In this document: piece after piece, positions 41,429 to 63,119 of the stretch
Layout: each line of letters opens with the position of its first letter
How positions within the stretch are numbered: the stretch's first letter is position 1
Virus record (IMG/VR): IMGVR_UViG_3300049830_000142
Coordinates: 70,589-134,588 of that record
Direction: 5' to 3' (one strand)
DNA: 64,000 bases
Origin: a virus
Position numbers and translations under genes: made by a program
Notes under the pieces: model-generated
The model's database searches: none
Told to the model about the DNA's origin: nothing
What the model saw: only the letters and a program-made list of their open reading frames with translations

Positions 41429-41623
41429 TTAGCTTAGTCCGCAAGTTATTCTTGGAAAACATGGGCAGCGTGAGTTACCACAGCAATAGCCCATCACTCG
41501 TTTCATTTCGAGTCCGCATTCACCACACACCGCTACGGTCGGGTTAGGATCGTAGTTAGGTGTGGGGTCCGGTAATTTAGGGATAACCGGTATTCCCCTT
41601 TCTCTCGCTTCTTCTGGTGTCAT
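41429..41623 (-). CDS. Small Zn-finger protein
   Basis: CGECG..YCCGNSRCP. Confidence 0.55.
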   Translation of the reverse strand: MTPEEARERGIPVIPKLPDPTPNYDPNPTVAVCGECGLEMKRVMGYCCGNSRCPCFPRITCGLS

Positions 41624-41973
41624 AGATCTGTGTCTAGCCTACGTTCTTCAGTAGGCTTTGGTGGTTTAGGTGGTACAGCCATTTTAGTTGTCACCATGTA
41701 CCAGGCTGTGATGAGTTGTTCATACGCTAAATCTGCCGCAGCCTGGCATCTGCTATGATACTGTTCCTTTTCCTCCATACTAGGATTGCCAAAGTAAGCA
41801 GGCATATTATCAGGTAACTCACAAAGTGACTGACCATCACCGTCAATGGTGATTGCAATATTCATGACCCACATCCCATCGCCAGTATTGACATAAGGTT
41901 TAGATATGTACTTTACCTTAGTCAAATCAATAACACCATCTTTCAATGGGTATAACGGTAATCCTATATTCAT
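41620..41973 (-). CDS. Hypothetical protein with C-terminal tag ERRLDTDL
   Basis: Tag at C-terminus; paralogue of 42956-43216. Confidence 0.75.
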   Translation of the reverse strand: MNIGLPLYPLKDGVIDLTKVKYISKPYVNTGDGMWVMNIAITIDGDGQSLCELPDNMPAYFGNPSMEEKEQYHSRCQAAADLAYEQLITAWYMVTTKMAVPPKPPKPTEERRLDTDL

Positions 41974-42470
41974 GGTACTACTAAGTGACCGGCTCTATTC
42001 TCGTATTTCGCGAAGAACAGACTTCCGAGCACGTATTTGTTTGGATGACTAACAGCCCAGAATGCTTCCTTCAGCGCATAGCCATGAGCTATGTGAAGAT
42101 AGAGGCAGATTGCTGAACTACGACTGATACCAGCTGCACAGTGAATAATGAAGTCTTTGCCTTCATACTTCTTTATGAATTCAAGGACTCTATAGGTGTC
42201 CTCGATCAAGATTGGATGATGCCATTGACCTTTATGCTCTAGCCTAGCTGTAATGTCAGTGAACTTTAGAGTTAGGATCTTATCAGAAGCACGGTCAAGC
42301 TTAAGTGGATACAAAGGCTCGTGTTCTTCATTGATAGAGATCATGACTGCGTTGTCAGGTAAAGACTCAATCTCTCCTGCCATTTGTGCGTTGATGTTGA
42401 CAGCTTTAGGGGTTTTAGGGGTTTTACCTTTAGGCTTCAAATCTCTTAGTGCTATTTCTTGTAATGTCAT
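41970..42470 (-). CDS. Protein-tyrosine/dual-specificity phosphatase
   Basis: IIHCAAGISRS (CX5R) loop; F.DI and PN motifs. Confidence 0.9.
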   Translation of the reverse strand: MTLQEIALRDLKPKGKTPKTPKAVNINAQMAGEIESLPDNAVMISINEEHEPLYPLKLDRASDKILTLKFTDITARLEHKGQWHHPILIEDTYRVLEFIKKYEGKDFIIHCAAGISRSSAICLYLHIAHGYALKEAFWAVSHPNKYVLGSLFFAKYENRAGHLVVP

Positions 42471-42660
42471 GATATTTTCTTATTAACTGGTCGGTCTTCC
42501 ATTGTTCTTTTGCCCATTGACTGGCTGGCCTCGAACCAAATTTAAGGTTACCTTTTATTGCTTTTTTAATAAGCTTTAATCTACCCTCATCAATATAAAA
42601 TAATCGATGAATAAGTAACGGCAGATTATCAGTGAAAACTACATTAGGTGTTAAACTCAT
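42430..42660 (-). CDS. Hypothetical protein
   Basis: 76 aa ORF. Confidence 0.5.
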   Translation of the reverse strand: MSLTPNVVFTDNLPLLIHRLFYIDEGRLKLIKKAIKGNLKFGSRPASQWAKEQWKTDQLIRKYHDITRNSTKRFEA

Positions 42661-42720
42661 GGTAGTGATCCAACTGGAATTAGTAACCCAGCTTTGATGT
42701 TCTTCTTGGTAGGTTTGACG

Positions 42721-42927
42721 TTACGAACCGTAATATACTTGGTTTCTACTACGTTCTTGTCTGTCAGAATCTTCTTGTTTCTTCGCTTCATTTGGGTTCC
42801 ATGCGTTTATTGGTTGAGGGATGTGTCGAGGCTGCATACCGATGTGTTGCCAATACTGTCCGGTAAACAACAGCTCTCGTCCACAGTCTTTGCATGTGGA
42901 TCTGTTGCCGAATATTTCTTCATTCAT
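42721..42927 (-). CDS. Small Zn-binding hypothetical protein
   Basis: Start trimmed to MNEEIFG (ATGA overlap with cryptic tag); CKDCG..W.H..H. Confidence 0.55.
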   Translation of the reverse strand: MNEEIFGNRSTCKDCGRELLFTGQYWQHIGMQPRHIPQPINAWNPNEAKKQEDSDRQERSRNQVYYGS

Positions 42928-42950
42928 AGTTGTGGGTCTAATCTTCGTTC
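42924..42950 (-). other. Cryptic C-terminal tag ERRLDPQL* in -1 frame of 42956-43216
   Basis: GAA CGA AGA TTA GAC CCA CAA CTA TGA. Confidence 0.85.
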
Positions 42951-42955
42951 TTCTG

Positions 42956-43216
42956 TTACACCTGATCTGCTTTGTGGTCTGACAATACAGTAGACCAAGC
43001 ATCTATCAAGTCATTTCGTATTTTTTCTGCTACCTTGCTCATGTCATATCGTTCAGTGCTGCTAACATAGTCTGTCAAACTAATGTCTTTGCCATCTACC
43101 TCTACCGTAAACTTTCTAATAGATGGATTATAACAAGCCGGACCAACGTTCTTAAGTTGCTGTAGGTTAAGTGTGTAACCTACGAAGTTGTAGAGTGGTA
43201 GTTTTAATTCACTCAT
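42956..43216 (-). CDS. Hypothetical protein, apparently frameshifted before its tag
   Basis: LPLY..LIDAW shared with 41620-41973; tag lies in -1 frame just past stop. Confidence 0.65.
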   Translation of the reverse strand: MSELKLPLYNFVGYTLNLQQLKNVGPACYNPSIRKFTVEVDGKDISLTDYVSSTERYDMSKVAEKIRNDLIDAWSTVLSDHKADQV

Positions 43217-43482
43217 AAGTCTGTGTCTAGTCTACGTTCATTGGTGTGCTTACTCGGCTTGTAACCGCCTACTAACGCATACTTGTAGACTTGGAAGTTG
43301 TAGTTAGGGTATTGCAGCTGCGCCTTAGTCCGGCATTCCTCAGCACCTTCAAAGCTGTAGAATAACCGAGCTTTATGCAGCATAGTTAATGTATGAGTTG
43401 GGCTAGCGTTTTGGTCAAACTTAACAAAGTGACCGTCTGCCCAATCAGTGTCGACCGCACCGACTAAATAAAGTTCATTCAT
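43213..43482 (-). CDS. Hypothetical protein, tag ERRLDTDL (tandem family)
   Basis: Tag; LY-V strand, A..F...A helix. Confidence 0.75.
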   Translation of the reverse strand: MNELYLVGAVDTDWADGHFVKFDQNASPTHTLTMLHKARLFYSFEGAEECRTKAQLQYPNYNFQVYKYALVGGYKPSKHTNERRLDTDL

Positions 43483-43772
43483 AGGTCTGGTTCAATGTTT
43501 CGTTCGTTGTCTTCCTCCCTAGGTATAATACGTTGGGTAGGCTGTTCATGAAATACTACTATCTCATAAGTATTCTCTGGTCTCTTTTCCTGCATGTAAT
43601 CTCTCAAAGCTTCAGCAGAAGATACAGTCGCCATGAATTTACATCTAGGAAATGTACCATGTGAAGGAATAGCCATTATGTTAGTTCCATCAGAATTTCG
43701 TCTCCATTGTAATGTTGCAAACTTGTCTTTGTTAGAACCGGCTGCAACTTTAACACAGTAGAGTACTCTCAT
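43479..43772 (-). CDS. Hypothetical protein, tag ERNIEPDL (tandem family)
   Basis: Tag variant; similar layout to neighbours. Confidence 0.75.
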   Translation of the reverse strand: MRVLYCVKVAAGSNKDKFATLQWRRNSDGTNIMAIPSHGTFPRCKFMATVSSAEALRDYMQEKRPENTYEIVVFHEQPTQRIIPREEDNERNIEPDL

Positions 43773-44119
43773 AAGTGTGTGTCTAATCTACGTTCAGGCA
43801 AGTCGGCTCTAGCTTGTGATTTACTAGTCCTAGGTTTCCGTCTACGATTAAGAACTATCTTAGTAACAAACTTAACAGTCTTAAACTCTCGTAAAGGAAA
43901 TAGCTTACCTAGATAGTATACTACATGTCTAGCCTGGCTTTCTGACAGGAAGTGAGTTGCAAAGTTTACACTAGTTACTCCGACGTCCTCGTTCTTCAGT
44001 TCTGAAGCAGTGGGAACAGGTCTAACATTTACCCACCTATCCATGTAAACTCTAGGCGATAGCTCGTAACCGTCTGTTGTCCCAGCATCGTGGACAACCC
44101 ATATTTTGTAGTGATTCAT
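43769..44119 (-). CDS. Hypothetical protein, tag ERRLDTHL (tandem family)
   Basis: Tag; ATHF.S..QA helix. Confidence 0.75.
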   Translation of the reverse strand: MNHYKIWVVHDAGTTDGYELSPRVYMDRWVNVRPVPTASELKNEDVGVTSVNFATHFLSESQARHVVYYLGKLFPLREFKTVKFVTKIVLNRRRKPRTSKSQARADLPERRLDTHL

Positions 44120-44415
44120 AGTTGTGTGTCTAACCTCCGTTCATCCAAGTCATGTCGTGTTTCACCTGGTGTATGAACTTCTAGATTAACTTCGATGACC
44201 TCAGTTTCCAATGTTTCGTTGACCTGTGTTGATTGTTGTATCTTCACTACCTCATCTCGCGAAGTAGTGAAGAATGCTTTCGCTAGTTCATTACCACTGT
44301 AACACCAGCCTTTGTAAGGCTGTTCAGTGTTGAAGAACTCGACAAACATACCAGCACGGTCTCCAACAATGTGCTCTATTTTATCCTTTGTTATTTTTAG
44401 GCAATACAGTCTCAT
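44116..44415 (-). CDS. Hypothetical protein, tag ERRLDTQL (tandem family)
   Basis: Tag; MRLYCL strand. Confidence 0.75.
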   Translation of the reverse strand: MRLYCLKITKDKIEHIVGDRAGMFVEFFNTEQPYKGWCYSGNELAKAFFTTSRDEVVKIQQSTQVNETLETEVIEVNLEVHTPGETRHDLDERRLDTQL

Positions 44416-44626
44416 TGCGATTCCAGTTCCATAGTCCGTATATGTTCACTGCAAGAAATACAGTGTTAGTGATGATCATTGGCCAGTTGTGCATTTTCAA
44501 CGATGCTATTGTCCAGAGTATGCTACCAACCATAAACCAAGGCCAGCACCACTTATGCTTTCTTGCAGCTAGAATGGCACCGATGACGGAAGCACCGGTG
44601 CCAAGCCAGCTTAATAACATGATCAT
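44381..44626 (-). CDS. PnuC-like small membrane protein
   Basis: W.G....G..L.A.K..W.W......W....N.YG.W.W, three TM helices. Confidence 0.6.
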   Translation of the reverse strand: MIMLLSWLGTGASVIGAILAARKHKWCWPWFMVGSILWTIASLKMHNWPMIITNTVFLAVNIYGLWNWNRNETVLPKNNKG

Positions 44627-44976
44627 CGATCAAACAACACTGTCATGATGAAGGCAACAATAGCAGAGCCAACTAACATCACTAATAGATGCCAGGCTGG
44701 GATACCACGCCTACACAGTTTTCTTTTGATCTCAGCTACTATAGCGTTTGTTCCAATCCTACCATTGGGCGGATCTTGCAACCCAGAGATCTTCAACAAG
44801 TCATCACACAACTTATTGCTGACTTCCATATGAGCGTCTAACAGTGCTGGCCAACTAGGATAGCAGCGCTGACATTCATAGTGACCGTCATCTCGATGAG
44901 CACTGCAGATTCCACTAGCTTTAAGGTCTGGATAGTTTCTCTTAGCCAGCACCTCGTAATCGTTTGCTGTAGGCAT
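44623..44976 (-). CDS. Hypothetical protein with C-terminal TM
   Basis: 117 aa. Confidence 0.55.
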   Translation of the reverse strand: MPTANDYEVLAKRNYPDLKASGICSAHRDDGHYECQRCYPSWPALLDAHMEVSNKLCDDLLKISGLQDPPNGRIGTNAIVAEIKRKLCRRGIPAWHLLVMLVGSAIVAFIMTVLFDR

Positions 44977-44977
44977 A

Positions 44978-45463
44978 TTAGTGTGTGAGTATGTATTCAG
45001 ACAAAGCGTATTTGTCTTTGAGCGATCCAGGAGGTAACGTAGCTGAGTTATGCTTAAGATCCGACAACTTAGCTAATGTTGTCCAGTTCTTGAGATGATA
45101 GATGTTGATGATGTAAGTGTCATAGGAAGTAAAGTTTTTCCTATTCAACGCTTGCAAACCATCAATCAGCATATCAACTACAAACCTAGGGAACTCTTCT
45201 AAGTCTTTTCTTAACTGTGCTTCAGTCACCCTATCATCTTCCATAGCGTCGTGGAGATTGCAGCCAGCCTCGATAATGGGTAGCTCTTGTCCTAAGGGTA
45301 ACCCCGTTCCGTAGTTCTTGGTAGGATCATACATCGTGACAGCAATCTTACGGACTGCTCTAGGATGCGTGATGTATTCCTGTCCATCTTTTCTCATCTG
45401 ACCTTTATGGTAGCGTTCAGCTAGCATATCGGTGTAGTCCGGTAGTTCTTGTATTGTTCTCAT
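44978..45463 (-). CDS. RelA/SpoT-type HD hydrolase (small alarmone hydrolase-like)
   Basis: H.GQ.RKDG..YITHP..V, LHD..ED, KL.D..HN. Confidence 0.85.
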   Translation of the reverse strand: MRTIQELPDYTDMLAERYHKGQMRKDGQEYITHPRAVRKIAVTMYDPTKNYGTGLPLGQELPIIEAGCNLHDAMEDDRVTEAQLRKDLEEFPRFVVDMLIDGLQALNRKNFTSYDTYIINIYHLKNWTTLAKLSDLKHNSATLPPGSLKDKYALSEYILTH

Positions 45464-45765
45464 TTCATGTATTCGTCGAATGCCTGTTTCAGCATCGCTC
45501 GTTTTAGTAACTGCCTACCACGCTTTTGAATAGCACGGTTAGCGTTACGAATTGTTTCTTTGGATAGTGGTCGTGAGTGAGCACCAGCCGTCTTATCCAC
45601 GCCTACACTACCATCGCTTCTCGTAAATGGTTTGGGAGTAGGAGTGGCCATCCAGTCTTTGCTGAATGTATGGTTGCGATAGAAGGCTGCAGTCTTAGCG
45701 TTGTTCTTTTGAGTGCTTAACTTGCGTTCTGACGGCTTACCAGCTTCTTGGTTCAATGTCTTCAT
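45460..45765 (-). CDS. Hypothetical basic protein
   Basis: 101 aa. Confidence 0.55.
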   Translation of the reverse strand: MKTLNQEAGKPSERKLSTQKNNAKTAAFYRNHTFSKDWMATPTPKPFTRSDGSVGVDKTAGAHSRPLSKETIRNANRAIQKRGRQLLKRAMLKQAFDEYMK

Positions 45766-45886
45766 CGCATCAGTATTAGGGTTGCGACACCCAATGTCAA
45801 CATGATCAACGCTACATTAAGGTAACGTCGAGCTATTGATTGACGAGTACCCAGCATTTCTGCCTTAGCCTCGTAGTATTGTTTGT

Positions 45887-46300
45887 TCATGGTTTGTATT
45901 CTAACAGTGTTGTAGGAGCTCCGATAGCAGTCCTAAGATAAGGTGTAGGATCAATGAGTATGTCGAACTTGTCTGGATTAGATCCCTGCTCCTCCATAGC
46001 TGCGTCTAAGGCTGCTTGAGTAATGTTGAACTTCTGGAACAGTGTTTGGTATAGTAATGCTTTCCAAGATTCATGCTCTTCAGTCATGAATAGATCTGCT
46101 GGTGTAGTCAACGCCCAAGTGATAAAGCAGTCTATTACTCGTTCAGTAGTCGAGTCTAACCAACCAGCACAAGCAGTTTCAGCTGAGTAAGAGCGATACA
46201 GTGATGCAATCGCCCTATCATCGTATTGGTTTAGCCTAGTATTGCGAGCTCTGATTTGTGCTATCGTTTTGATCTGATAGTCTTCGAATTTGTCATCCAT
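45887..46300 (-). CDS. Hypothetical protein
   Basis: 137 aa. Confidence 0.55.
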   Translation of the reverse strand: MDDKFEDYQIKTIAQIRARNTRLNQYDDRAIASLYRSYSAETACAGWLDSTTERVIDCFITWALTTPADLFMTEEHESWKALLYQTLFQKFNITQAALDAAMEEQGSNPDKFDILIDPTPYLRTAIGAPTTLLEYKP

Positions 46301-46704
46301 TATATTGTCTTTCCACAGTCGTCACAGGTATAAACCAAATAGTCTAAACCAGTAATGCCATGTGTTTGGTTGCGATGTTGACAGGTTTTAGGCCAGTCTT
46401 TGATCGTTGCTTTCATTCCGTCAGTCACCTTCATCAGTTTAGACATGAGGTGTGTTAATTCCTCAGCTCTGATAACTAAACCATCTTGCCAACTCGAACT
46501 CCAAATAGGACCAAATTGATTAAATCCTTTAAGGTGTCGAGGGTATTCTTGTCTACTGATGACAAAGCCTAATTCCGGTGGCTGAGCTGTAGTACTAGCA
46601 GCTCCTTCCAATTCCGTAATCTTGCCATATCGCCAGTCGTTATACTCTTGAGTTGTTTTGAAGAGGGGTTCTCCCTCAGGTAATCTGTCGGTGTGAGTGC
46701 TCAT
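46300..46704 (-). CDS. Hypothetical protein, C-terminal C-x-H..CxxC
   Basis: 134 aa. Confidence 0.55.
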   Translation of the reverse strand: MSTHTDRLPEGEPLFKTTQEYNDWRYGKITELEGAASTTAQPPELGFVISRQEYPRHLKGFNQFGPIWSSSWQDGLVIRAEELTHLMSKLMKVTDGMKATIKDWPKTCQHRNQTHGITGLDYLVYTCDDCGKTI

Positions 46705-46851
46705 TGTGTTTTGTTTGCGTTAAATGCTACTGACGTGAAGCAGAAAACTGCTCCAGCTAAACAGAACTGCCAGTTATGCTTAGCTAAACCAACAGCTACG
46801 CACATAATACCGGCTAAGCCCCAGAACAGGGCCAATTGATTTCTTGTCATA

Positions 46852-47052
46852 TTACCACCTAATTCCTTTGTTGCGGTTTTCTTGTATCCACTCCACTACT
46901 AGTATAATCACTAGAATAGGTCCAATGATAATGGATAATATCAAAGCTAGAATGTCTTCTAAAACTAATTTACGGCGCTGGTATGTTCTTTGTAAAAATA
47001 CCAGCATTCCTAGAACTAGCCAAGTCAACGCTATGTATTTGAATATTGTCAT
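46852..47052 (-). CDS. Two-TM membrane protein (untagged relative of 51850-52179)
   Basis: LTW.V.G..., LED...I..GPI...V.EW. Confidence 0.55.
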   Translation of the reverse strand: MTIFKYIALTWLVLGMLVFLQRTYQRRKLVLEDILALILSIIIGPILVIILVVEWIQENRNKGIRW

Positions 47053-47303
47053 AAGTTGTCTGCGAGTCTAGCTAACACATCTCCATGACAAGCTTGAGGA
47101 CTACACCAGCAGCCTAAGATCTTGTCCTTTAATAGAGGTAGTTGAGCTAGTAACTCAGGTTTTGTCTTGATCCATTCTTCGTATTTCTGGATCACTTCTT
47201 CCCTAGTACCGTCCTTACCTATCTCGAACGGATTTCCCCATTGTGTTCTTCGATCTATCAAAACATCGAATTTACTTCGCTTGCAATGTACCACTTTTGT
47301 CAT
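47049..47303 (-). CDS. DUF4326 protein
   Basis: V.IDR.TQWGNPF..Y..W..L.GK.LGCWC.P..CHGDVL. Confidence 0.9.
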   Translation of the reverse strand: MTKVVHCKRSKFDVLIDRRTQWGNPFEIGKDGTREEVIQKYEEWIKTKPELLAQLPLLKDKILGCWCSPQACHGDVLARLADNL

Positions 47304-47760
47304 TTGGTTTATCCTTCAAATATGTGTAAGCTTTCAAAACTAAATTATAATCATCCATCAACATACCTATCCCGCTATTACAGTTAGAGCATAAAGTGCC
47401 TCTAAACTTACCAGTTTGATGCGAATGATCCCAACATAATTTTTCTTTGCTTCCGCATATCTCACAACTGTCATTCAGCTGTTCTTTCTTTGCTTGTCGG
47501 TAAGCTTGTTTATAAACCTTTGATCGATTTCTGGTTTCAATACTACAACGCCACTGTGTTTTAGTATCGTTTCTGGGATATACTTTAACTGGACCACAAG
47601 TGTTACATACAGCTGTTTGAGTTGTACTATTTATGTTAGTCAATCGATGTAACCATTTTGAGGTGACAGATCTAGAAATGACTGTACCGTGTCTAAGTTG
47701 CTTATAATAACAAGCTGCACAAAATCCACGTGCTGTAACTGGTTTAGGGCTGCAATTTCT
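47272..47760 (-). pseudogene. Endonuclease VII-family homing endonuclease whose N-terminal part lacks an in-frame ATG
   Basis: CEICG..WDHSH.TGKFRG.LC..CN.GIG; frame stays open upstream (RNCSPKPVTARGFCAACYY) to a TGA; nearest ATG is in another frame. Confidence 0.6.
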
Positions 47761-47911
47761 TCAGTTGTCATTGGTCTTAGTGTATTTGACTACGATTGGG
47801 TCGAAGAGGTGGAATGGGAACGTTAGCTGTTGAATGTTCTTATCCGTGAATGCAGCATTGTTGTGCCACATTAGTGAGCGATCGAAATGTAGTTTATAAG
47901 CTACGTATTTC

Positions 47912-48397
47912 TTAGCTGCCGTTATCAGGGAGCGCATATAGGTTGATGTTGATTGGTAATTTGTTGAATACATGCTTGATCATCTCAAGCACGATAGGCC
48001 AGTGTCCACCTGCCCTATCACTAGCTATCTTGTAAGGCATGGAAATGGAAGTTAGTTTAAGTTCCAATACCTGCTTTCTTAGTTCTTCCAGAGATTGGTA
48101 GAACGCTTCATAGTTCATGTATCTTGCGCCTTCGTAGCCATAGTTAGGCTGGCCGTATAGGTTAGACACATATTTGATTGGGCTAGTCTTGTCACTTACT
48201 TCAACGATGATGCTCTTACCCAACAACTCTTTGCCGTGAGTAATGTAAGCTCGGGTATCCTCTCCATAAACTTCCGGATATTGCATCCTCAAAGCTTTGG
48301 CTACACCTGAGTTCATCGTGTTTCTTGTATTGCAGCAATGGGCTACTAACTCATCCTTTGAGTCTAGTATGTTGCCCGTTATGTTTGTTATTGTCAT
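47912..48397 (-). CDS. Macro domain protein (ADP-ribosylhydrolase-like)
   Basis: I.GNI....VAHCCN....MNSGVAKAL...YP; IAMP-like SMPY.I...GG.W. Confidence 0.85.
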   Translation of the reverse strand: MTITNITGNILDSKDELVAHCCNTRNTMNSGVAKALRMQYPEVYGEDTRAYITHGKELLGKSIIVEVSDKTSPIKYVSNLYGQPNYGYEGARYMNYEAFYQSLEELRKQVLELKLTSISMPYKIASDRAGGHWPIVLEMIKHVFNKLPININLYALPDNGS

Positions 48398-48687
48398 AAA
48401 TCAGTGTCTAATCTTCTGGTAGGTAATGGTAAATCTACTTCAGGAGCTAGCGAGCCTTCCAAGTCATCACCTTCCCTGCATAGCATCCATTCAGTTGAGA
48501 ATGTAGCTGCTTTCTTTGCCGGTGTTCCAATTAAGCTGTCGTGTACTATTCGCATAATACTGTTACAAGCAAATGGTCCTACGTTAGCCATAGCATATCG
48601 CTTTGGAACTCTGTCGTCCGTTCTTTTCACCCACACATCATTTGACATGACTCTTTCGTCTAACCTTAGTTTTCTAAATTTTTTCAT
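48394..48687 (-). CDS. Hypothetical protein, tag TRRLDTDL
   Basis: Tag; ATGA-coupled to macro gene. Confidence 0.75.
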   Translation of the reverse strand: MKKFRKLRLDERVMSNDVWVKRTDDRVPKRYAMANVGPFACNSIMRIVHDSLIGTPAKKAATFSTEWMLCREGDDLEGSLAPEVDLPLPTRRLDTDL

Positions 48688-51092: not shown

Positions 51093-51311
51093 TCATGGCG
51101 TTACTTGTAATCTCATTAGTTGTTCAGCCTTAACTTCGCACATCCAACCGCTCAATGCGTATTTCCAGCAATTGTCAGCCTTATGCCAGACCACATATTC
51201 TATGGTCACAATAGCATGCTTATACTTGCTGCCTTTGGATAGCTTCATTACAACTTGCTGTCCAGGCCAAAACTCAGGTTTGTCTTTGGCCTTTATCTTA
51301 AATATTTTCAT
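51093..51311 (-). CDS. Hypothetical SH3-like protein
   Basis: P.F.PGQ.V..W.Y. Confidence 0.5.
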   Translation of the reverse strand: MKIFKIKAKDKPEFWPGQQVVMKLSKGSKYKHAIVTIEYVVWHKADNCWKYALSGWMCEVKAEQLMRLQVTP

Positions 51312-51580
51312 AGGTCTGGGTCTAACTGTCGTGCTGAATGCTCTAGTCTAATAGGAGCCTTCAAGTTTCCGGCTGGTTCAGTTAACTTACCTTCCCAGCT
51401 ACATTTGCACTTATACTGGTAAGTGCCTTTGATCCTGGTTATGCCTGTCTGTCTACAACTAGGGCATACTGGACCATACATCTGCACACCGTCAATGTAG
51501 CCGCAGAACCTATTTTGACAGACATCGCCTAAGCTAGTCCTCATTAAGGGTGCGCCACATCCTGGACATTCGTTTTCCAT
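51308..51580 (-). CDS. Double Zn-ribbon protein, tag ARQLDPDL
   Basis: CPGC..CxxxxC, CPSC..CxC; tag. Confidence 0.75.
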   Translation of the reverse strand: MENECPGCGAPLMRTSLGDVCQNRFCGYIDGVQMYGPVCPSCRQTGITRIKGTYQYKCKCSWEGKLTEPAGNLKAPIRLEHSARQLDPDL

Positions 51581-51849: not shown

Positions 51850-52179
51850 TCATAGGTTTGGATCCAGTCTCCTATCCTCGTCCTTAGCATCCGGTGTTAT
51901 TGTAACCGGTTTAGTATTCCGAGGATGTGCCCCACTCTTTAACCTAAATAGAGTCATATCCTTATGCTCGCTCAGCCATACAACTGCCATTACTGAGGTA
52001 GCTATTGGAGCAAAGAAGATAATGACCGGTATCCAGTATAAGTGTTCTAGCTTTACATACCCATCAGTGTAGGCTTGATCGCATATACCAATGATGCAAC
52101 CGATAACACCATACAATACCCAGAGTGTGAGAATATAGTGTGTTGTGCAAAAGTCGTAAATTGATGCTAGCATATTCAT
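51850..52179 (-). CDS. Membrane protein, tag DRRLDPNL
   Basis: Two TM helices then polar linker and tag. Confidence 0.75.
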   Translation of the reverse strand: MNMLASIYDFCTTHYILTLWVLYGVIGCIIGICDQAYTDGYVKLEHLYWIPVIIFFAPIATSVMAVVWLSEHKDMTLFRLKSGAHPRNTKPVTITPDAKDEDRRLDPNL

Positions 52180-55728: not shown

Positions 55729-55768
55729 AAAGAGGGAATGGTTGAGCCATTCCCCTTGTTCCTTTTTC

Positions 55769-55972
55769 TTAGCCCCTAGCTACTACGTAAGCTAAGTTAT
55801 TTGCTTCGCTGATAGAAAGGATTACCCAGTTATTTGTTTCGTTTTTACCAAAGTTCACTGGTGTCCCCTGTTCCGCCATGATCTTAGCTCTAGTAACTAA
55901 TTCAGCTGGCGCGTTGTTCAAACCCTCTAGCCAAGGGAGTGTCGTTATCGTTTCTGTGATCTTATATGTCAT
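55769..55972 (-). CDS. Hypothetical protein
   Basis: 67 aa. Confidence 0.5.
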   Translation of the reverse strand: MTYKITETITTLPWLEGLNNAPAELVTRAKIMAEQGTPVNFGKNETNNWVILSISEANNLAYVVARG

Positions 55973-56858
55973 TCTTGATCTCCTTTGATTCTGCGCGAGC
56001 TAGCAAGTCAGCAAGATCATCCTGTTCACTGATATTGAACTTTACTGAACCGACTACGTCATGAAGCCCACCAATACTAGACGTGGTTGTAGTAGGCATG
56101 GTTGATGTAGATCCAGCGCTGATAGACCTAGCATCATCAGTGATAGAGCAAGCAAACATCATATTGGTGTCGGCTACGCTACGTTTCCTTAGAACGTTGT
56201 TTGACAATGACCTGAAAGCAACTTCATAACCTGCATTCGTAGCATTGTAAGTCATTGCCTGTCCTTTAGAGACTTTGTATTTGCTGCTCTCTTTGATAGC
56301 GTCTTGATTTGCGCCTAAGTAGATCACCTGTCTGTTCTTAGCCTGCACTTCTTCGATTAGCTTCGCCAAGTCTTCATTAGAGTTGTTGCGGCTCGTGTTC
56401 TCCTCACCATCCGTAAGGCTAACATAAATCACTCTACCAGGCTTTTCAGCTTCATTGAGTGTATTGATGAATGCTTCTGCTTCACGAATAGCTTTGCAGA
56501 ATGCGTCTAACAATGGAGTCCCACCATTAGGAGTGTAGTCAGCTGCTGTTAATTCAGCCACCTCATTCAGGTCCTTATGATCAATGAACTTGTGATAGCC
56601 GAACCAGTCTCCAGGCTCACCAGTCCTTGGAGCGCTGTACTGCCCATCTGAAGCGAAGAATACGAGGTTAAGCGTGCACTTCAAATTAGGAGTAGACTCG
56701 CTGAAGTCTGCATCTACGCTAAGTTGACGGTCTTGGTTAGGCAAAGCTTTCTGTTCACGAATGAACCTGTTGATACCGTCTATTGTAGCCTGTTTAGTCG
56801 GCTCCATGCTTCCGCTAGCGTCAACTAACAGAACTATGTGTGTGTAATTTGGATTCAT
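55962..56858 (-). CDS. von Willebrand factor A (vWA) domain protein
   Basis: MIDAS DASGS, GGTPLLDA, TDGEEN. Confidence 0.92.
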   Translation of the reverse strand: MNPNYTHIVLLVDASGSMEPTKQATIDGINRFIREQKALPNQDRQLSVDADFSESTPNLKCTLNLVFFASDGQYSAPRTGEPGDWFGYHKFIDHKDLNEVAELTAADYTPNGGTPLLDAFCKAIREAEAFINTLNEAEKPGRVIYVSLTDGEENTSRNNSNEDLAKLIEEVQAKNRQVIYLGANQDAIKESSKYKVSKGQAMTYNATNAGYEVAFRSLSNNVLRKRSVADTNMMFACSITDDARSISAGSTSTMPTTTTSSIGGLHDVVGSVKFNISEQDDLADLLARAESKEIKNDI

Positions 56859-57109
56859 AAATGGGGGTCTAATTGTCTTTCGTTTGTTGTGTCGTCCAGT
56901 CTACCTGGATTAGGATTGGTGTTAAGAGTGACGGTTATGTATTCCATTGGTTGTTGCATCTGGATATTGACGTCAGCTCTAATTGTGTTGTTTTCTCTGT
57001 CTATAGTAACGTTGTTTGTTTGAACACTAGCACCAACGTAAGGAGTCATGTTCTCTCTTATCATTTGTTCTATTCTACTTACTTGTAGCTGTGTTTCAGG
57101 AGCAGGCAT
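56855..57109 (-). CDS. Hypothetical protein, tag ERQLDPHL; sheath-C/gp25-like segment; upstream in-frame MCP-like segment
   Basis: Tag; IRADVNIQMQQPMEYITVTL; frame open 29 codons upstream of ATG. Confidence 0.7.
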   Translation of the reverse strand: MPAPETQLQVSRIEQMIRENMTPYVGASVQTNNVTIDRENNTIRADVNIQMQQPMEYITVTLNTNPNPGRLDDTTNERQLDPHL

Positions 57110-57436
57110 TATACGTTCAGCAAAACTGCTTTCACGCAGTCTAGCTCTTAAATAATCCTGTGCTGCTGATATAGCGTCGCGTGGAGCTTCTATAGACTAT
57201 GCCCTCTTGTTCAGTCCTCCTATTTACTGCGGCCAATCTTTCAACATGTAATCTAAGCTCACGTAACTCTCTTTGTAAGTTAACGATGTCTATGCTCTTT
57301 TGATCATTTGCTTGTTGAAGGTATGCGACTCTTTCTTCTAAAGTAGGATTGTGTTCTAAATGTCTGCTAGTACATCAGCATCATCAGCTTCAACCCTACC
57401 AGATCCCATTCCAAATAATCCGTCTAAGATACTCAT
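57110..57436 (-). pseudogene. Interrupted 5' region of 56855-57109 (three joined frames)
   Basis: 26-aa ORF from ATG 57436, start-less coiled-coil frame (-1), then return to first frame. Confidence 0.45.
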
Positions 57437-58311
57437 ATTGTTTGGTCTAGGTTACGATCACCAGTCTCATGTCTAACATTAGGGGCTGGTTCTCTTGTTA
57501 CGGTTGGATGTCTTTCTGTTACACTACCTACATGAAAGTCACTAGCTATAAATTCGCTACCACGATTAGTATTAGCCCTGATCCTAACTTCAGTCTCACC
57601 ATAAGCGTTGATGGCTTCACCAAGTGTCGAAATTGGAGTAGCTTGGCGTACCCTAGACGTATCATTAGCGGCTTCAATCATCGCTCTAACTCGGTCAAGT
57701 TGTCTCTCGTTTTCACTTTCAGAAGCTGATCTAGCTATTTGAGTAGCAGTAACAGCCTCTTGAACTGCTTGCGCCATAGGACTCATTCCAGGAACAGTTT
57801 GTGGACCGTGTCTAGAACTTAGTGCACCTAGAGTCATTGCTTCGCTATCCCTAACTGCATCAGCACTAGTTCTAACTACGCGAGCTCTATCTCTTACCTG
57901 TTGTAGAACTTCACGGCGCTGTGTGTCATTATTAACTTCAGCTCTAAGCCTATTAATTTCATCACGCATCTCACTCAAATGCCTGGCTGTGTTGGCATCC
58001 ATTTGTGAGAATATGTTGCTGACAGTTTGGCTTAAGTCAGTTATACGCCTGCTCAAACTCTCAGTAATAGGTGTTAGTATTGGCTGTGGAGGTAATGCTG
58101 GTGCTGGCATTTGTAGAGCTGCACCAGATGATCCTTCTACTATTTCTTCAATCGGTCTAGGATCAGACTCGATTGATTGCATCATCTCATTTATCTCATC
58201 TATCCCTGCCTCTGGATAGGGGACACCCGGAGTTGAACGACATGAGTTCAACAGCTTGAGGCCCCATCCTATCAAGATGTGGCCTATTTTTAATCTGAGG
58301 CTTCTAAACAT
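57433..58311 (-). CDS. Low-complexity/coiled-coil protein, tag variant DRNLDQTI
   Basis: 292 aa; N-terminal amphipathic segment; tag variant. Confidence 0.7.
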   Translation of the reverse strand: MFRSLRLKIGHILIGWGLKLLNSCRSTPGVPYPEAGIDEINEMMQSIESDPRPIEEIVEGSSGAALQMPAPALPPQPILTPITESLSRRITDLSQTVSNIFSQMDANTARHLSEMRDEINRLRAEVNNDTQRREVLQQVRDRARVVRTSADAVRDSEAMTLGALSSRHGPQTVPGMSPMAQAVQEAVTATQIARSASESENERQLDRVRAMIEAANDTSRVRQATPISTLGEAINAYGETEVRIRANTNRGSEFIASDFHVGSVTERHPTVTREPAPNVRHETGDRNLDQTI

Positions 58312-58324
58312 AATTTATTTGTTG

Positions 58325-59779
58325 TTAATTGAAATAAAACGAGATTGTCTCTTTGATACCATCCTTGGATAGTACTAAGCAGTTCTGTCTCGCTCTACTA
58401 TGCAAACCTAGGTTGTCAGCATAGCGGTCTCCTGATACACAGCTACCAAAGATAACGTGCTCGAAACCTCTCATCTCCTCTTGTAAGAAGCGATGACGGT
58501 CTCCAGTTAGCATTAGTTTACTCTTAGCTCCCTGTAATATCTCTGGGTGCTCCATGAATAGGGCTTGAACATATGCTTCTTTAGGAGCTCCACTAGTAGG
58601 CATGATCGATTTTGCGAAATCTGATGCGCCGTGGTCCATAAGTATAGCAGTCGTTCCTACTCTAAAGCATCCTTGTCTAGACTTGAATAGGTTGAACTTG
58701 ATTCTAGGTTCATTCCTAAAGTAAGTCTGTATAGTCTTGAATAGTATCCAGTCTCCTACACCAGCATGGTTTCCCTTTACTGCATAGACTGTTACTTTCT
58801 TGAACATAGTAAGCAGGTTAAAGAAGAAATCATTCAAGCTATTCAATGCTAGCTCAAACTGTTCCTCTCTAAGCAAATCAGATTCCAATGGAGTGCCTTT
58901 GACAGTAAAGCCAGACAATCCATGTAGAATATCCCCTAAACTGCATACCACAACTTCATTGAATGGTAGTTTACGATTGTTTACTTCGTCATAGATCTGA
59001 CAAAAGTAACTATCCATAATGTCTTTAATTTTCTCACTATTGAAATCACTTCCAGAATAGAGCTCTTCTGAATTAGCTCTGCCTCCGAAATGTAAATCGC
59101 TCAAACCAATCAACAAAGTCTCATCCTTAGTTTTAGGACTACCTTTATAGATGATTGGTTTGAATGGTCTAGGCGTGTACTTCTCAATAACGCGCATAAA
59201 TGGATCTAGCTTAGCAGCTTCAAACAATCTCCAGCTTTCTGCATCTGCTTGAGTGCTTTTCCAATCTGCATGCTCTAATTCCTGTTGTAGCTCAGTGCGT
59301 CTAGTCTGCAATACTCTGTCAATTGCTTCCTTATCCTTTTTCTGGATAATCTCTTCAGTAGTAATCGGTACTGTGTCATGAGTCCAACCCATGATACGAA
59401 AGTACTCCACTACCCATTCTCTGCGCATCTTGTATAGTCTAGCTATCTGCGCTATGCTTTTCTCTCCACCCTGCCAATTAGAGTAAGCCGCTAACATCGC
59501 TCTGTGTTGATCACCGGGGCATACATAATCCCTACCATAGCTCTTTAATGGAACGATGTATTTATCGTTGAGCTCATTGTAGGTGTAGCCGTTTTGCTGA
59601 ACTACCTTGTCATTAGCTATGGATGGCAATGGTAAATTATTGGCCATCTTGTTGTATATTGCTTTAGCCTGTGCTTTATCACAGCTAAATTGTGCTTGTA
59701 GATAAGTGATGAAACCCTTCTTTGCACGTTTAAGCTTGATTGCGTTTGCTCTGATCGATTGGTATTGTTCGTTGGTCAT
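58325..59779 (-). CDS. Calcineurin-like metallophosphoesterase with N-terminal extension
   Basis: SDLHFG, LGDILHG, GNH, HG, GDRH motifs. Confidence 0.85.
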   Translation of the reverse strand: MTNEQYQSIRANAIKLKRAKKGFITYLQAQFSCDKAQAKAIYNKMANNLPLPSIANDKVVQQNGYTYNELNDKYIVPLKSYGRDYVCPGDQHRAMLAAYSNWQGGEKSIAQIARLYKMRREWVVEYFRIMGWTHDTVPITTEEIIQKKDKEAIDRVLQTRRTELQQELEHADWKSTQADAESWRLFEAAKLDPFMRVIEKYTPRPFKPIIYKGSPKTKDETLLIGLSDLHFGGRANSEELYSGSDFNSEKIKDIMDSYFCQIYDEVNNRKLPFNEVVVCSLGDILHGLSGFTVKGTPLESDLLREEQFELALNSLNDFFFNLLTMFKKVTVYAVKGNHAGVGDWILFKTIQTYFRNEPRIKFNLFKSRQGCFRVGTTAILMDHGASDFAKSIMPTSGAPKEAYVQALFMEHPEILQGAKSKLMLTGDRHRFLQEEMRGFEHVIFGSCVSGDRYADNLGLHSRARQNCLVLSKDGIKETISFYFN

Positions 59780-59885
59780 TGTATAATATGAAGGTTGTTC
59801 CTGAAGAAAAAGCCAGGGGGTGTCGGTTTCCTGATTTTCAATGTCTCAAACTTAGACAAATCATCGTTAAGTTGTTGATAATCAA

Positions 59886-60260
59886 TCATTTGCTAGTATT
59901 TTTATACTTTTTAGCTATTTTAGCTAAATGCTTGATATTCACTAACTTATGGATTTTTGATTGTCTGCTATGCAGATAATGTGGTACGAGCTCTAAAACC
60001 CTTGGTCGGGCTTCTAAGTAGCCTAAAACCTTATTGCACTGGTTATGCACAATACCTCTTACGACACCGGTTTTATGACAGTGGTCAACCACTTGGTCAT
60101 CACCTAACGGTTCATCACAAATAGGACAAGTATAACCTTGGAGTAATAGAGCTTCGCCATAAGCTTCTTTACAAAGGCCATACTTAGATTTTATCTGACT
60201 CCATTGTCGGTCAGGTAGAGGATACTTATCACGAGCGGCTGAATAGTTGTAGTCAGGCAT
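59886..60260 (-). CDS. Endonuclease VII-family homing endonuclease
   Basis: KYGL..Q...CPIC..VDHCH.TG.VRG..CN..LG; start trimmed to ATG 60260. Confidence 0.9.
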   Translation of the reverse strand: MPDYNYSAARDKYPLPDRQWSQIKSKYGLCKEAYGEALLLQGYTCPICDEPLGDDQVVDHCHKTGVVRGIVHNQCNKVLGYLEARPRVLELVPHYLHSRQSKIHKLVNIKHLAKIAKKYKNTSK

Positions 60261-60266
60261 TCCAGG

Positions 60267-60294
60267 AATATAACACACTTCGACAGTGTGTCAA
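60267..60294 (-). promoter_or_regulatory. Sigma70-type promoter, leaderless, palindromic spacer
   Basis: TTGACA-16-TATATT, ATG 6 nt later; acacact-tcgac-agtgtgt. Confidence 0.7.
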
Positions 60295-60300
60295 CTGGGA

Positions 60301-60732
60301 TTACGAATATGTTATGGAAGAATCTGTAACAGTAATCGTTTCCGCAGTAGATAAAACATCCAGGTCCTCAGATTGTTGAATCGTGAGTTGGACGTCAGCT
60401 AAGATGTTGTTTGCAGTTGTTTGAAGAAGAGTAGGATCAGATGAGATTAGTGAAAAAGTATTGTCGCGATAAAAGAATTCTCCTGGAGCTGGAGATTGCT
60501 GCTGTATGTCTTCGATCTGAGCTGGTGAAGCTACAGTCACAAAAGTGTCGTCGTATGTACCATCAGCTAATAAAATGCGTTGCTTGACAAACAAGAATGT
60601 GGTAATGTTAGTACCACTAGTTATTGTGTAGTCGACTCTGTAGTTGCCCGGTCTAGTTGATTTGGACTCTCTACGAGTAATTGTGACAGATTTCATATAG
60701 CTATTTATACCATATGAGCGACAAGCCATCAA
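60301..60732 (-). CDS. Hypothetical protein (start probably MKSVTIT, 60696)
   Basis: Beta-rich Thr-rich protein. Confidence 0.55.
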   Translation of the reverse strand: MMACRSYGINSYMKSVTITRRESKSTRPGNYRVDYTITSGTNITTFLFVKQRILLADGTYDDTFVTVASPAQIEDIQQQSPAPGEFFYRDNTFSLISSDPTLLQTTANNILADVQLTIQQSEDLDVLSTAETITVTDSSITYS

Positions 60733-61148
60733 GACGAAACGATAAAGCGTATCAACAAGCTTATTATTTGAGGAACAAAGATAAGCTCAAAAAACAAAAG
60801 AAACAGCAATATGCCAAAGTTCAAGATGAATACTGTAAACGTAGTACAACGTATTACTATCGAAATAAACCATACGTCTTAAAACAAATGCGAATTAGAC
60901 ATCTAAAAATTAGCTATGACATGACCACCGAAGATTACGATAAAATGCTCCTAACTCAAAACAATAGTTGTGCAATTTGTAAAGTAAATACAGACCTCCT
61001 AACTAAAATGTTATGTGTTGACCATGATCACAAAACTGGTAAAGTTAGAGGGTTGCTTTGCGACAGTTGTAATCGAGGATTAGGTTATTTCAAAGACAAT
61101 CCCGAGACAACAAAAAAAGCAACAGAGTATCTAACCAAACATCAATAA
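60714..61148 (+). CDS. Endonuclease VII-family homing endonuclease
   Basis: Y.MT.EDY..ML..Q...CAIC..VDHDH.TGKVRGLLC..CN.GLG.FKDN. Confidence 0.92.
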   Translation: MSDKPSRRNDKAYQQAYYLRNKDKLKKQKKQQYAKVQDEYCKRSTTYYYRNKPYVLKQMRIRHLKISYDMTTEDYDKMLLTQNNSCAICKVNTDLLTKMLCVDHDHKTGKVRGLLCDSCNRGLGYFKDNPETTKKATEYLTKHQ

Positions 61149-61150
61149 TT

Positions 61151-61888
61151 ATGGCTAAATCATCAAGTCAAATCAGTGGGGTCAGATCTGACCCAGGTCG
61201 AGAAATCAGACCAATCAGCAGCAGCGCAGTCGATGTCCAAAGCTTTGTCGTAGGTAAATACGATGAGTATGGGCATAGAAGGGCGAGTGGAGAAACAGCA
61301 GGTGGTACAGTAGAGGGTGAGAGACTTAAGAAACTAATGCAGAATAGTATGCAGACTAGAGGTGGCAATCTAATGCCAGGCTTTGTCATGACTACTATCG
61401 GACCTATGCGTGAACTCGATTATCGCAGGCTCACTGGTCAAATCGTACAACCAGAACCAGTAGCTCAGTTGCAGCCAACCAAAGCTTTGCGTAAAAAAAC
61501 TAAGACTGCAGAGGCTCCTACTATAGCTTTACCTACAGCTCAGCCTGTGTTACCAGTGCCTACGCTACATCAAATGCTTGACATACCTAAGTCAGCACCA
61601 CAAGCTTTGCCACAACCTACTTCAGCAAAAAATAAGAAAGTAGTTGAAATCATAGTAGATTTTGGTAAAATTAAATTAACGATTGATGAAATAACACTCG
61701 ATGACAGAATGACTATCTTAGTGTTTAGTCATGAAGATGATATTGCATTTGAACCTCAGTTGGGTGGAAAATTAATTATTTCATATAACGGAGCTAAAAT
61801 CAATACTATGTATGCAGGTAAATTTAACTGGTATAACACTAATCAACCAGTGCTAATATTTTTTAATGACCAATCTAAAAATTCATAA
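61151..61888 (+). CDS. Hypothetical protein with Pro/Ala linker
   Basis: 245 aa. Confidence 0.6.
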   Translation: MAKSSSQISGVRSDPGREIRPISSSAVDVQSFVVGKYDEYGHRRASGETAGGTVEGERLKKLMQNSMQTRGGNLMPGFVMTTIGPMRELDYRRLTGQIVQPEPVAQLQPTKALRKKTKTAEAPTIALPTAQPVLPVPTLHQMLDIPKSAPQALPQPTSAKNKKVVEIIVDFGKIKLTIDEITLDDRMTILVFSHEDDIAFEPQLGGKLIISYNGAKINTMYAGKFNWYNTNQPVLIFFNDQSKNS

Positions 61889-62627
61889 ATTAACAGGTAA
61901 ACCTAAGTCTGTAAGTCATAAATTAGCTATTGCTTTGGCCAACAAAGGAGTTAGTCGTGGAAAGAGTGTGCCAAAATCCCCAGAGCATCGAAGAAAAATT
62001 GCAGAGGCAAGAAAAAGTCAGGTTATGAGAAAAGGGTATAAACTTCCAAAAAGCCATGGTGAAAAAGTTAGCAAAGCATTAACCGGCAGAACTCTTACAA
62101 AGGAGCATAGACAAAACATTAGAGCAGGCTTACATAAAGCTAAAGACAAAATGGTTGCTGTAATGCTTGGAAGGTTTGCTGGTAATAAACATTGGAATTG
62201 GAAAGGTGGTATAAGCCCTGAAAATAATAAAATAAGACAATCAGGTAAGTATAAAGCCTGGATCCGAAGTGTGTTTACAAGAAACAATTATACCTGTAAA
62301 CTATGTAATAAGCGTGGTAGTAATCTCGAAGCCCATCACATTAAGGCTTTTGCTGCATATCCGCATTTAAGATTTGATATTAACAATGGCATTACACTAT
62401 GTTGTAATTGCCATAAAAAAGTGCATAATAACATGATTACAATTGAAGAAATCCTTAAGGTTGCAATAGAACCTGTACAAACTGATGCTAATGAAGAGCA
62501 TACCACTCCAGTACGCAAAGCTTATGATGCTGTTGTAAATGGTGCACAGACTGCCGGTGGTGCTCTAGTAGCTGGTGTAGCTGGACTAAATTCATTAGAT
62601 CAACATGCGCCAATGAAAACAATATGA
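61866..62627 (+). CDS. HNH endonuclease with NUMOD3-like repeats, fused to unrelated C-terminal segment
   Basis: H.NWKGGI, W...VF.R..Y.C..C, LEAHHIK, NGITLC..CH; then MITIEEILKVA.. tail. Confidence 0.85.
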   Translation: MTNLKIHKLTGKPKSVSHKLAIALANKGVSRGKSVPKSPEHRRKIAEARKSQVMRKGYKLPKSHGEKVSKALTGRTLTKEHRQNIRAGLHKAKDKMVAVMLGRFAGNKHWNWKGGISPENNKIRQSGKYKAWIRSVFTRNNYTCKLCNKRGSNLEAHHIKAFAAYPHLRFDINNGITLCCNCHKKVHNNMITIEEILKVAIEPVQTDANEEHTTPVRKAYDAVVNGAQTAGGALVAGVAGLNSLDQHAPMKTI

Positions 62628-62806
62628 GCTTTGAAAAGAACGGCATGGTTACTGAAAATAGCCAGAGCGATTTTGATCTTACCAAGAAAGCCAAGTACTA
62701 CGACGAGATGGGTACTGGTATAGCTGACGAGAACAACAAAGACAAGTTAACCAAGCCAGCAGCTATCATTGACTTCGAAGCAGTTAAGCATAAAAGTCCT
62801 AAATAA
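62624..62806 (+). CDS. Hypothetical protein
   Basis: 60 aa, ATGA-coupled. Confidence 0.55.
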   Translation: MSFEKNGMVTENSQSDFDLTKKAKYYDEMGTGIADENNKDKLTKPAAIIDFEAVKHKSPK

Positions 62807-62809
62807 AAT

Positions 62810-62837
62810 TTGACAATTAGTAAATCTGGATTACATT
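62810..62837 (+). promoter_or_regulatory. Sigma70-type promoter, leaderless
   Basis: TTGACA-16-TACATT, ATG 6 nt later. Confidence 0.7.
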
Positions 62838-62843
62838 ACCACC

Positions 62844-63119
62844 ATGCCTACTATTACAACTGGCGGAGGAACTTTTGAATCACTATCAGAAGCAGGCAAC
62901 CCACCTATGTCAGGTTGGGTTGTAGGTCACTACAATACATCTGGCCGAAAGCTTAGGGATGGCAGATCTACTGCTGCTACCTTAAACTTAGCCCCTAGAC
63001 CTGCTGTAGATATGGATGAACTAAGAAGGATAGTCAAGGAAGAGATCCTCCATGAACAGCAAGCACAAGCTAAAGTTAGAGTAGAGGTGGAAGAACGCAG
63101 GATGGACACAGATTTATAA
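62844..63119 (+). CDS. Hypothetical protein, tag ERRMDTDL
   Basis: Only + strand tagged gene; ends TAA, 1 nt before portal-like gene. Confidence 0.75.
   Translation: MPTITTGGGTFESLSEAGNPPMSGWVVGHYNTSGRKLRDGRSTAATLNLAPRPAVDMDELRRIVKEEILHEQQAQAKVRVEVEERRMDTDL

Follow-up and report, generated by a model that had tools for sequence, protein, structure and literature searches.

A C-terminal octapeptide shared by unrelated phage accessory proteins and the phage's own AAA+/DUF3150 module: a candidate docking tail

Introduction

Cells connect many proteins to a single hub by means of shared docking tails, prominent examples being the sliding clamp, the proteasome and p97. Among AAA+ machines, such tails include the HbYX motif of PAN, Rpt and archaeal Cdc48 proteins, the GQYL ending of Mpa and Bpa, and the p97 tail (..DDLYG), which is bound by PUB/PUL cofactors; the adaptor SspB ends in an XB tail (..LRVVK) that docks on the N-domain of ClpX. 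The beta-clamp motifs QL[SD]LF and QLxLxL and the gp45-binding tails of T4 form a further group, and T4 also marks its head-internal proteins with a capsid targeting sequence that is N-terminal and cleaved by the prohead protease. Here, we describe an octapeptide that ends twelve reading frames in the last 64 kb (64,000 nucleotides, hereafter the window) of the 134,588-bp viral contig IMGVR_UViG_3300049830_000142 of IMG/VR (G000). The same ending recurs on an AAA ATPase and a DUF3150 protein encoded at the other end of this contig, and we consider it a probable docking peptide for the module that these two proteins belong to. This AAA+ module is unstudied, occurs on plasmids as well as in phages, and is related to ycf46, an orphan gene of cyanobacteria and plastids.

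G000 is estimated to be 62% complete, which places the phage genome at about 215 kb. Homologs of the portal protein number in the hundreds, on contigs that reach 206-237 kb, indicating a large family of uncultured jumbo phages, and an alignment of the portal was used to retrieve 70 loci from viral contigs. All of the genomes compared (G000, G002, G004, G006 and others) are metagenomic fragments. Among them, G002 is syntenic with the replication module of G006 (IMGVR_UViG_3300020577_013140, a distant lineage) and ends where G000 begins, and it therefore stands for the missing left part of a G000-like genome; L122 is a contig of the G004 lineage.

An Octapeptide Conserved as a Peptide

Twelve frames between window positions 41620 and 63119, eleven on the minus strand and one on the plus strand, end in x-R-[RQN]-[LIM]-[DE]-[TPQ]-x-[LI]-stop (Table 1). 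An earlier note made from the letters of this stretch had listed twelve such C-termini, and every one of them was recovered at its position: on the minus strand the stop codons begin at 41620 through 57433, and the one plus-strand stop ends at 63119. The strict pattern has no further match among the 8,644 stop-to-stop frames of the whole 134.6-kb contig. Chance would supply approximately 0.004 matches per proteome given residue composition and 0.001 given shuffled tails of the last 40 residues, the comparison that the earlier note had proposed as a check, against 10 observed in a greedy gene set and 12 in all frames. The carriers, which the earlier note had called mostly unrelated, show no detectable similarity to one another: in a pairwise BLASTP of the twelve bodies stripped of their tags, no pair fell below an E-value of 0.07 (the best was 0.08). 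Paralogy as the sole cause was rejected, because the bodies in the window are unrelated. Pfam returned no significant family for any of the 11 called tagged genes, and PHROG a weak match for just one (57433-58311). The tags sit at the extreme C-terminus behind polar linkers enriched in Glu, Pro and Arg, and the bodies do include the Zn-ribbon-like Cys-rich protein, the protein with two transmembrane segments and the helical or coiled-coil protein that had been recognized at the outset.

The nucleotides beneath the tag vary in a manner that points to the peptide. Across the twelve window tags, the second codon position carries 2.0 bits at five of the eight codons and the third position only 0.2-1.2 bits, and conservation begins abruptly at -24 nt. 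The invariant Arg at -7 switches between CGN and AGR codons (CGT, CGA, CGG, CGC, AGA, AGG), and Leu between CTA, TTA and CTG. When 32 tags from three genomes are taken together, Arg -7 again uses six codons, Leu uses TTA, CTA, CTG, TTG and CTC, the stops are both TGA and TAA, and the acid at -4 is invariant. A similar picture emerges from an ortholog pair (G002_51851 and L122_14222), a 166-amino-acid (aa) protein encoded between SbcD and SbcC, whose members are 40% identical overall: their linkers are unalignable, and the RRLD-x-x-L tail is kept with lineage-specific changes and with different codons at four of its five conserved residues. Since second positions are fixed, third positions are free and Arg uses six codons, the tag is selected as a peptide, and the argument from Arg and Leu codons with which this had been proposed is borne out by the information content of the codon positions. 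The same codon pattern led us to reject a DNA repeat. The ratio of nonsynonymous to synonymous change on orthologous tags was sought in L034 and L100, a pair too similar to inform (0 differences in 32 tag codons, 5 in 128 upstream codons).

The Same Tail Ends the Subunits of an AAA+/DUF3150 Module

Ahead of the window, near the beginning of the contig, positions 1915-3579 encode a 554-aa AAA ATPase (PF00004, E 1e-31) that ends in ..NRRLDEKFS, and the adjoining gene (857-1861) encodes a 334-aa DUF3150 protein (PF11348) that ends in ..YTRRLDTEGI. The statement that no recognizable enzyme carries the tag is thus true of the window and fails for the genome, where both of these products end in RRLDxxxx. 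Similarly, the view of the tag as an orphan sequence gives way, as the tail is the native C-terminus of the phage's own AAA+/DUF3150 module. Nor is this a peculiarity of one contig. R-[RKNM]-L-D lies close to the C-terminus in 36 of 43 DUF3150 orthologs, exactly as RRLD in 31 of these; two orthologs (P0129 and P0130) end in precisely RRLDTDL, others end in RRLDLEL, RRLDTEL or RRLDVDL, and distant ones in RRIEV. Among AAA homologs, 38 of 131 have R-x-[LIVM]-x-[LIVMF] within their last 12 residues, compared with 2.3 in shuffles. The AAA protein of Mycobacterium phage Catdawg ends in KVRVLDL, and in that genome the tail is on the AAA alone, with no other gene carrying it.

The composition of the module extends this pattern. 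In the G004 lineage the gene order is AAA (..EDRALDPFN), DUF3150 (..YTRRLDFDEL), a DUF1257-like gene, a DUF2997-like gene and a gene for a 75-aa protein; the DUF1257-like and DUF2997-like members are tail-less, and the 75-aa protein ends in ..EEVRVIESRL in two lineages, the tail being identical in G002 and the G004 lineage. Tagged genes follow this module, one on either side of SbcD ahead of SbcC. On a Manganitrophus plasmid, AAA, DUF1257, DUF2997 and DUF3150 genes stand together with an 84-aa gene, and the tails read RRLRGG.., RKIRIL.. and SRRLEEI... In the AlphaFold2 models, residues 528-554 of the AAA (model pLDDT, the predicted local distance difference test, 91) and residues 324-334 of the DUF3150 protein have pLDDT below 50, and both tails are accordingly predicted to be disordered, whereas the domains of the two proteins are modelled well. 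In a Foldseek comparison, the double-tier unfoldases p97/Cdc48, Rix7 and Drg1 align with the complete AAA model (E ~1e-21), whose N-terminal part resembles Ycf46. DUF3150 has no solved relative by sequence or by fold (best fold E 0.9). In the literature we found nothing on the motif, or on the mechanism of DUF3150, DUF1257, DUF2997 or Ycf46. As a separate observation, the AAA gene of L122 (7561-9543) is split at the Walker A region into open reading frames (ORFs) of 306 and 256 aa with approximately 290 nt between them, which could reflect an intron, an intein remnant or a frameshift; atlas neighbours include intein-bearing AAA genes.

Within each of the three lineages compared, the accessory tags resemble the DUF3150 tail of that lineage. 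The DUF3150 tail of G000 and G002 reads RRLD-T and the accessory tags RRLD-[TP]. In the G004 lineage the DUF3150 tail is RRLDFDEL, with Phe, and the tags are R[RK]L[ED]-[LIMP]-[ED]-L. In the G006 lineage the DUF3150 protein ends in ..YVRRIEV and other proteins end in RRIEL or RRISL, G006 having its own short tail variant on a few proteins (154503, 137567 and 40446: ..ELRRIEL, ..PRRISL and ..LRRIEIGDPSR). In these three lineages, the residue that follows the acid in the accessory tags tracks the DUF3150 tail by lineage.

Distribution of Tagged Genes among Relatives

Pattern scans of whole records gave 12 tags in G000, 13 in G004, 12 in G011 and 9 in G009, with 0-1 matches to reversed-pattern controls, and seven strict tags plus two near-tags in G002; G004 and G011 overlap in one tag. 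A narrower pattern found no tags in G006, G007 and G008 (portal identity at most 61%), with one reversed-pattern control match in G007. Tags were confined to the closer clade, and none were present in the 10-kb portal flanks of more distant relatives. The tagging of accessory genes is a trait of one sub-lineage of the ~215-kb family, with roughly 20-25 tagged genes per genome, an estimate obtained by combining the counts of G000 with G002 and of G004 with G011. The tagged proteins of G000, G002 and G004 are not homologous between records.

One tagged family of about ten members is Cys-rich and is located at G004 99216-106952 and 17060 and at L122 12630-13076 and 14886-15281. In its members, a conserved N-terminal stretch (MK.TKR.NRWYDENNNSW..) precedes long series of C-x-x-C triplet repeats, and one member ends in the variant ..RDRLLDPYL.

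Searches for the tag itself were less productive. A back-translated ERRLDTDL-stop pattern identified two loci in viral contigs, one of them real (G002), and seven chance-like matches in metagenome contigs; a search with a consensus nucleotide pattern returned no match. The last 40 residues of the 43213-43482 product retrieved only the query from a collection of 5.8 billion proteins, an eight-residue tag sharing too few words for such a search.

A Docking Peptide for the Module and Its Alternatives

The motif is real and peptide-selected, is shared with proteins of the module, and co-varies with the DUF3150 tail by lineage. From this we infer that the octapeptide is probably a C-terminal docking motif that brings accessory proteins to the binding site used by the subunits of the AAA+ module. 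In this proposal, x-R-[RKQN]-[LIM]-[DE]-x-x-[LI]-COOH would copy the disordered tail in which the subunits of a Ycf46/Cdc48-like AAA+ module end, these subunits being the AAA ATPase, the DUF3150 protein and, in relatives, the 75-aa module protein. The tail would be the plug with which these subunits occupy a shared site, and one sub-lineage would have put it on some 20-25 otherwise unrelated accessory proteins per genome that thereby reach the same site. Tagged proteins would then be clients, adaptors or regulators of an AAA+ unfoldase, and the outcome of binding could be recruitment, remodelling or degradation. Candidate receptors include the AAA ring, the tail-less DUF1257 and DUF2997 proteins and their small neighbours, the vWA protein described below, and a host factor or hub. 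Among the functions that the earlier note had offered, docking on a phage hub is the one that fits best.

Several points weigh against this proposal. The receptor is represented by candidates only, and complex prediction with AAA residues 1-525 (an 80-row alignment) and DUF3150 residues 285-334 (33 rows) scored 0.00 and 0.02 against a mark of 0.32, a result that counts neither for nor against binding. In G000, the AAA and DUF3150 tails exceed the tags by one residue, and their last residues are S and I, respectively, rather than L. With the motif also present on the tail of the AAA itself, the receptor may be some third protein rather than the AAA. In G004, nine of the 13 tagged proteins come from the single Cys-rich paralog family, and part of that count is thus paralogy. 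In principle, a tail shared by descent or recombination could also persist without a common receptor, against which stands its conservation at the peptide level across three lineages.

If the docking proposal is extended to its limit, about one gene in ten would be addressed by an eight-residue tail to a phage Cdc48-like unfoldase, constituting a client network that is ubiquitin-free and virus-owned; we offer this extension tentatively and regard it as doubtful. Such a network could let a phage remodel, time or destroy accessory and host-takeover proteins of its own, or the host proteins that these bind. What is new here is the spread of the tail to ~10% of the phage's genes and its co-variation with the tail of DUF3150. 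If true, the proposal would provide the first functional handle on an orphan set of genes, Ycf46, Ycf35 (DUF1257), DUF2997 and DUF3150, that is distributed among phages, plasmids, cyanobacteria and plastids. The eight-residue peptide could be used as bait for the receptor, and the 20-25 or so tagged proteins of each genome would be the machine's likely clients. Newly acquired genes could be enrolled in an existing machine by the addition of ~24 nucleotides, and the tag could flag this class of accessory genes in metagenomes.

Other explanations address the same observations. A degron would amount to the docking proposal with another outcome: the tail would mark proteins for unfolding and possibly degradation by the phage AAA+ or a host protease, and so set how long accessory proteins last. 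It would suit an ATPase of p97/Cdc48 type by fold, tags on disordered and exposed C-termini, and carriers that are small accessory proteins, but we consider it unlikely: a destruction signal would hardly be expected on the ATPase and its conserved partners, which bear the same tail, the module yielded no protease domain, and the tail is unlike the LAA tails of ssrA type. The tail could instead be a ligand of the phage vWA/MIDAS protein (55962-56858), the Asp/Glu at -4 coordinating the MIDAS metal in the way that LDV-, LDT- and RGD-type ligands do in integrin I-domains. This 298-aa protein matches phrog_7371, has a complete DxSxS..T..D site (DASGSM .. GGT .. TDGEEN) and is conserved in G004 (48% identity) and G006 (26%). 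Its gene lies among the tagged genes, one of which overlaps its start codon, and on a Methylomonas plasmid a DUF3150 gene sits between a MoxR-type AAA gene and a NorD-like vWA gene. Such a ligand is nonetheless quite improbable, given that all vWA matches are below the Pfam gathering cut-offs, that distant plasmid-system tails have Arg at the acid position (RRLRGG, RKIRIL), and that no vWA gene is annotated in the 12-kb plasmid stretch retrieved. Used as queries for close relatives in viral contigs, the vWA protein and a 484-aa nuclease-like protein gave no matches.

A hub of the host is a further candidate, for example the beta sliding clamp, with the tail as a variant of the clamp-binding motif QLxLxL; E. 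coli Pol IV ends in ..RQLVLGL. The tags R[RK]LELEL and RRLDLEL of the G004 lineage, together with RQLDPDL and RQLDPHL of the window, have the spacing of the hexapeptide motif, and the tail stands at the extreme C-terminus behind a flexible linker. A clamp of the host would be needed, because the phages encode none of their own in the five contigs, all incomplete, in which neither dnaN nor a tubulin/PhuZ gene was found. We give this explanation very little credence: Gln occupies position 1 in just 2 of 12 window tags, position 4, where a hydrophobic residue is needed, is Thr, Pro or Gln in all 12 and hydrophobic in the G004 lineage only, clamp motifs have neither the invariant Arg -7 nor the acid -4, and the phage polymerase belongs to family A. 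Packaging of tagged proteins into the head by a capsid or ejection signal, an option of the earlier note, is harder still to believe. One tagged gene is directly upstream of the portal gene on the late strand, and the cargo peptides of encapsulins are likewise C-terminal tails behind linkers, yet the carriers include a membrane protein with two transmembrane segments, the replication-module protein encoded between SbcD and SbcC, the AAA ATPase and the DUF3150 protein, and relative L008 lacks the portal-proximal gene, on which grounds we judge it highly unlikely. Finally, the peptide could be the by-product of a nucleotide-level element such as a translational-coupling signal or recombination junction. 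At 10 of the 12 window tags the stop overlaps or directly adjoins the next ATG, and every tag has NTA as its last codon, fixed as such because of these overlaps. That explanation is scarcely credible, since variation has a three-base periodicity with CGN/AGR switches, five of seven G002 tags stop with TAA, the last codon in that record can be CTT or CTC, some of its tags have no adjacent start, ATGA overlaps are common at untagged genes too, and no real gene starts at the stop of tag 51850.

Tagged Genes and Their Neighbours in the Window

The individual tags and their carriers are collected in Table 1. The tag at 42924 was described in the earlier note as cryptic; it is present and intact, but it lies off-frame behind the gene at 42956-43216 and is unattached as assembled. 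The ATG of the following gene (MNEEIFG..) overlaps the stop of this tag, whose displacement is a frameshift, be it an indel, an assembly error or decay. The protein encoded at 51850-52179 has a basic 40-residue tail that probably faces the cytoplasm, and the 292-aa protein at 57433-58311 contains a second, internal copy of the motif core (..ENERQLDRV..) at residue 203. The relative without a tagged gene ahead of its portal gene, L008, has a portal 75% identical to that of G000.

Table 1. Tagged reading frames of the window, with coordinates in the 64,000-nucleotide stretch.
Coordinates	Strand	Carrier	C-terminus	Remarks
41620..41973	-	117-aa accessory gene	..PKPTEERRLDTDL	stop overlaps ATG of next gene (ATGA); no Pfam/PHROG family
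42924..42950	-	intact tag + stop	..TEERRLDPQL	-1 frame relative to 86-aa gene 42956-43216
43213..43482	-	89-aa gene	..HTNERRLDTDL	
43479..43772	-	97-aa gene	..EDNERNIEPDL	most divergent tag of the set
43769..44119	-	116-aa gene	..DLPERRLDTHL	
44116..44415	-	99-aa gene	..DLDERRLDTQL	
48394..48687	-	97-aa gene	..PLPTRRLDTDL	directly upstream of Macro-domain gene 47912-48397
51308..51580	-	90-aa Cys-rich (Zn-ribbon-like) gene	..HSARQLDPDL	
51850..52179	-	109-aa protein, two hydrophobic segments (~residues 15-33, 49-70)	..DEDRRLDPNL	
56855..57109	-	84-aa gene	..TNERQLDPHL	stop overlaps ATG of vWA/MIDAS gene 55962-56858
57433..58311	-	292-aa helical or coiled-coil protein	..ETGDRNLDQTI	
62844..63119	+	91-aa gene	..VEERRMDTDL	immediately upstream of portal gene (63121 onward)

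From tagged gene 57433-58311 to tagged gene 56855-57109, positions 56855-57435 hold three consecutive open pieces in three frames: one of 26 aa (MSILDG..), one of 77 aa, and then the tagged frame, which is open for 29 codons upstream of its ATG. Together these may represent one tagged gene of ~190 aa that has been broken by two frameshifts, through assembly error or decay. The G004 counterpart upstream of the vWA gene is a single tagged gene of 175 aa, without sequence similarity to the pieces.

The sole members of the accessory block that are conserved in G004 are a dual-specificity phosphatase-like gene (41970-42470) and the Macro-domain gene, whose counterparts there are 63% and 48% identical, respectively. 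A tagged gene is directly upstream of each of the two in the window and close upstream of both in G004. Four HNH-type endonuclease-like ORFs (47272-47643, 59886-60278, 60714-61148 and 61866-62627) are scattered through the accessory block and ahead of the portal gene, and the last of these carries, as a fusion, a segment that L008 encodes in a small gene of its own. At 39257-40358, two genes have lipoprotein or signal-peptide N-termini (..LIATGC.., ..LSSFAQ) and a beta-barrel-like C-terminus with terminal aromatic residues; they may be host-like outer-membrane proteins carried by the phage, and they hint at a Gram-negative host, possibly one of the Bacteroidota.

Comparison with Known Systems

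The docking tails of Cdc48 and the proteasomal AAA+ proteins resemble the phage tail in being disordered peptides at the extreme C-terminus of a Cdc48-like ATPase, here by fold match, that are shared to reach one site. The phage tail is unrelated to HbYX, GQYL and p97 tails in sequence, with no Tyr and no penultimate aromatic residue; indeed, none of 32 tags ends in AA, as in ssrA-type tails, or has a penultimate Tyr, as in the HbYX type. Its carriers are also far more numerous and diverse. The XB tail of SspB similarly tethers its protein to an AAA+ unfoldase by a short peptide at the C-terminal end of a long flexible linker, but it belongs to one adaptor, and its ATPase lacks the motif, whereas the phage tag is proteome-wide. 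Clamp-binding motifs share with the tags of the G004 lineage a C-terminal, hub-docking character and the L-x-hydrophobic-x-L spacing. The phage tags differ from them in being poor in Gln, in having Thr or Pro at the key hydrophobic position in the window, and in their additional conserved Arg and acid, and the window tags do not combine Gln at position 1 with hydrophobic residues at positions 4 and 5/6. Like the T4 capsid targeting sequence and the cargo peptides of encapsulins, the octapeptide is a portable terminal peptide on unrelated proteins; unlike the T4 sequence, it is found at the extreme C-terminus, and its carriers (a membrane protein, an ATPase and replication-module proteins) are implausible as head cargo. 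The Manganitrophus plasmid module has the same genes as that of the phage, and there too the ATPase and its partners share an Arg-rich R-[RK]-hydrophobic-x tail. Where such a tail would be confined to the module, in the phage sub-lineage it is found also on some 20-25 unrelated proteins genome-wide, 12 of them encoded in the window.

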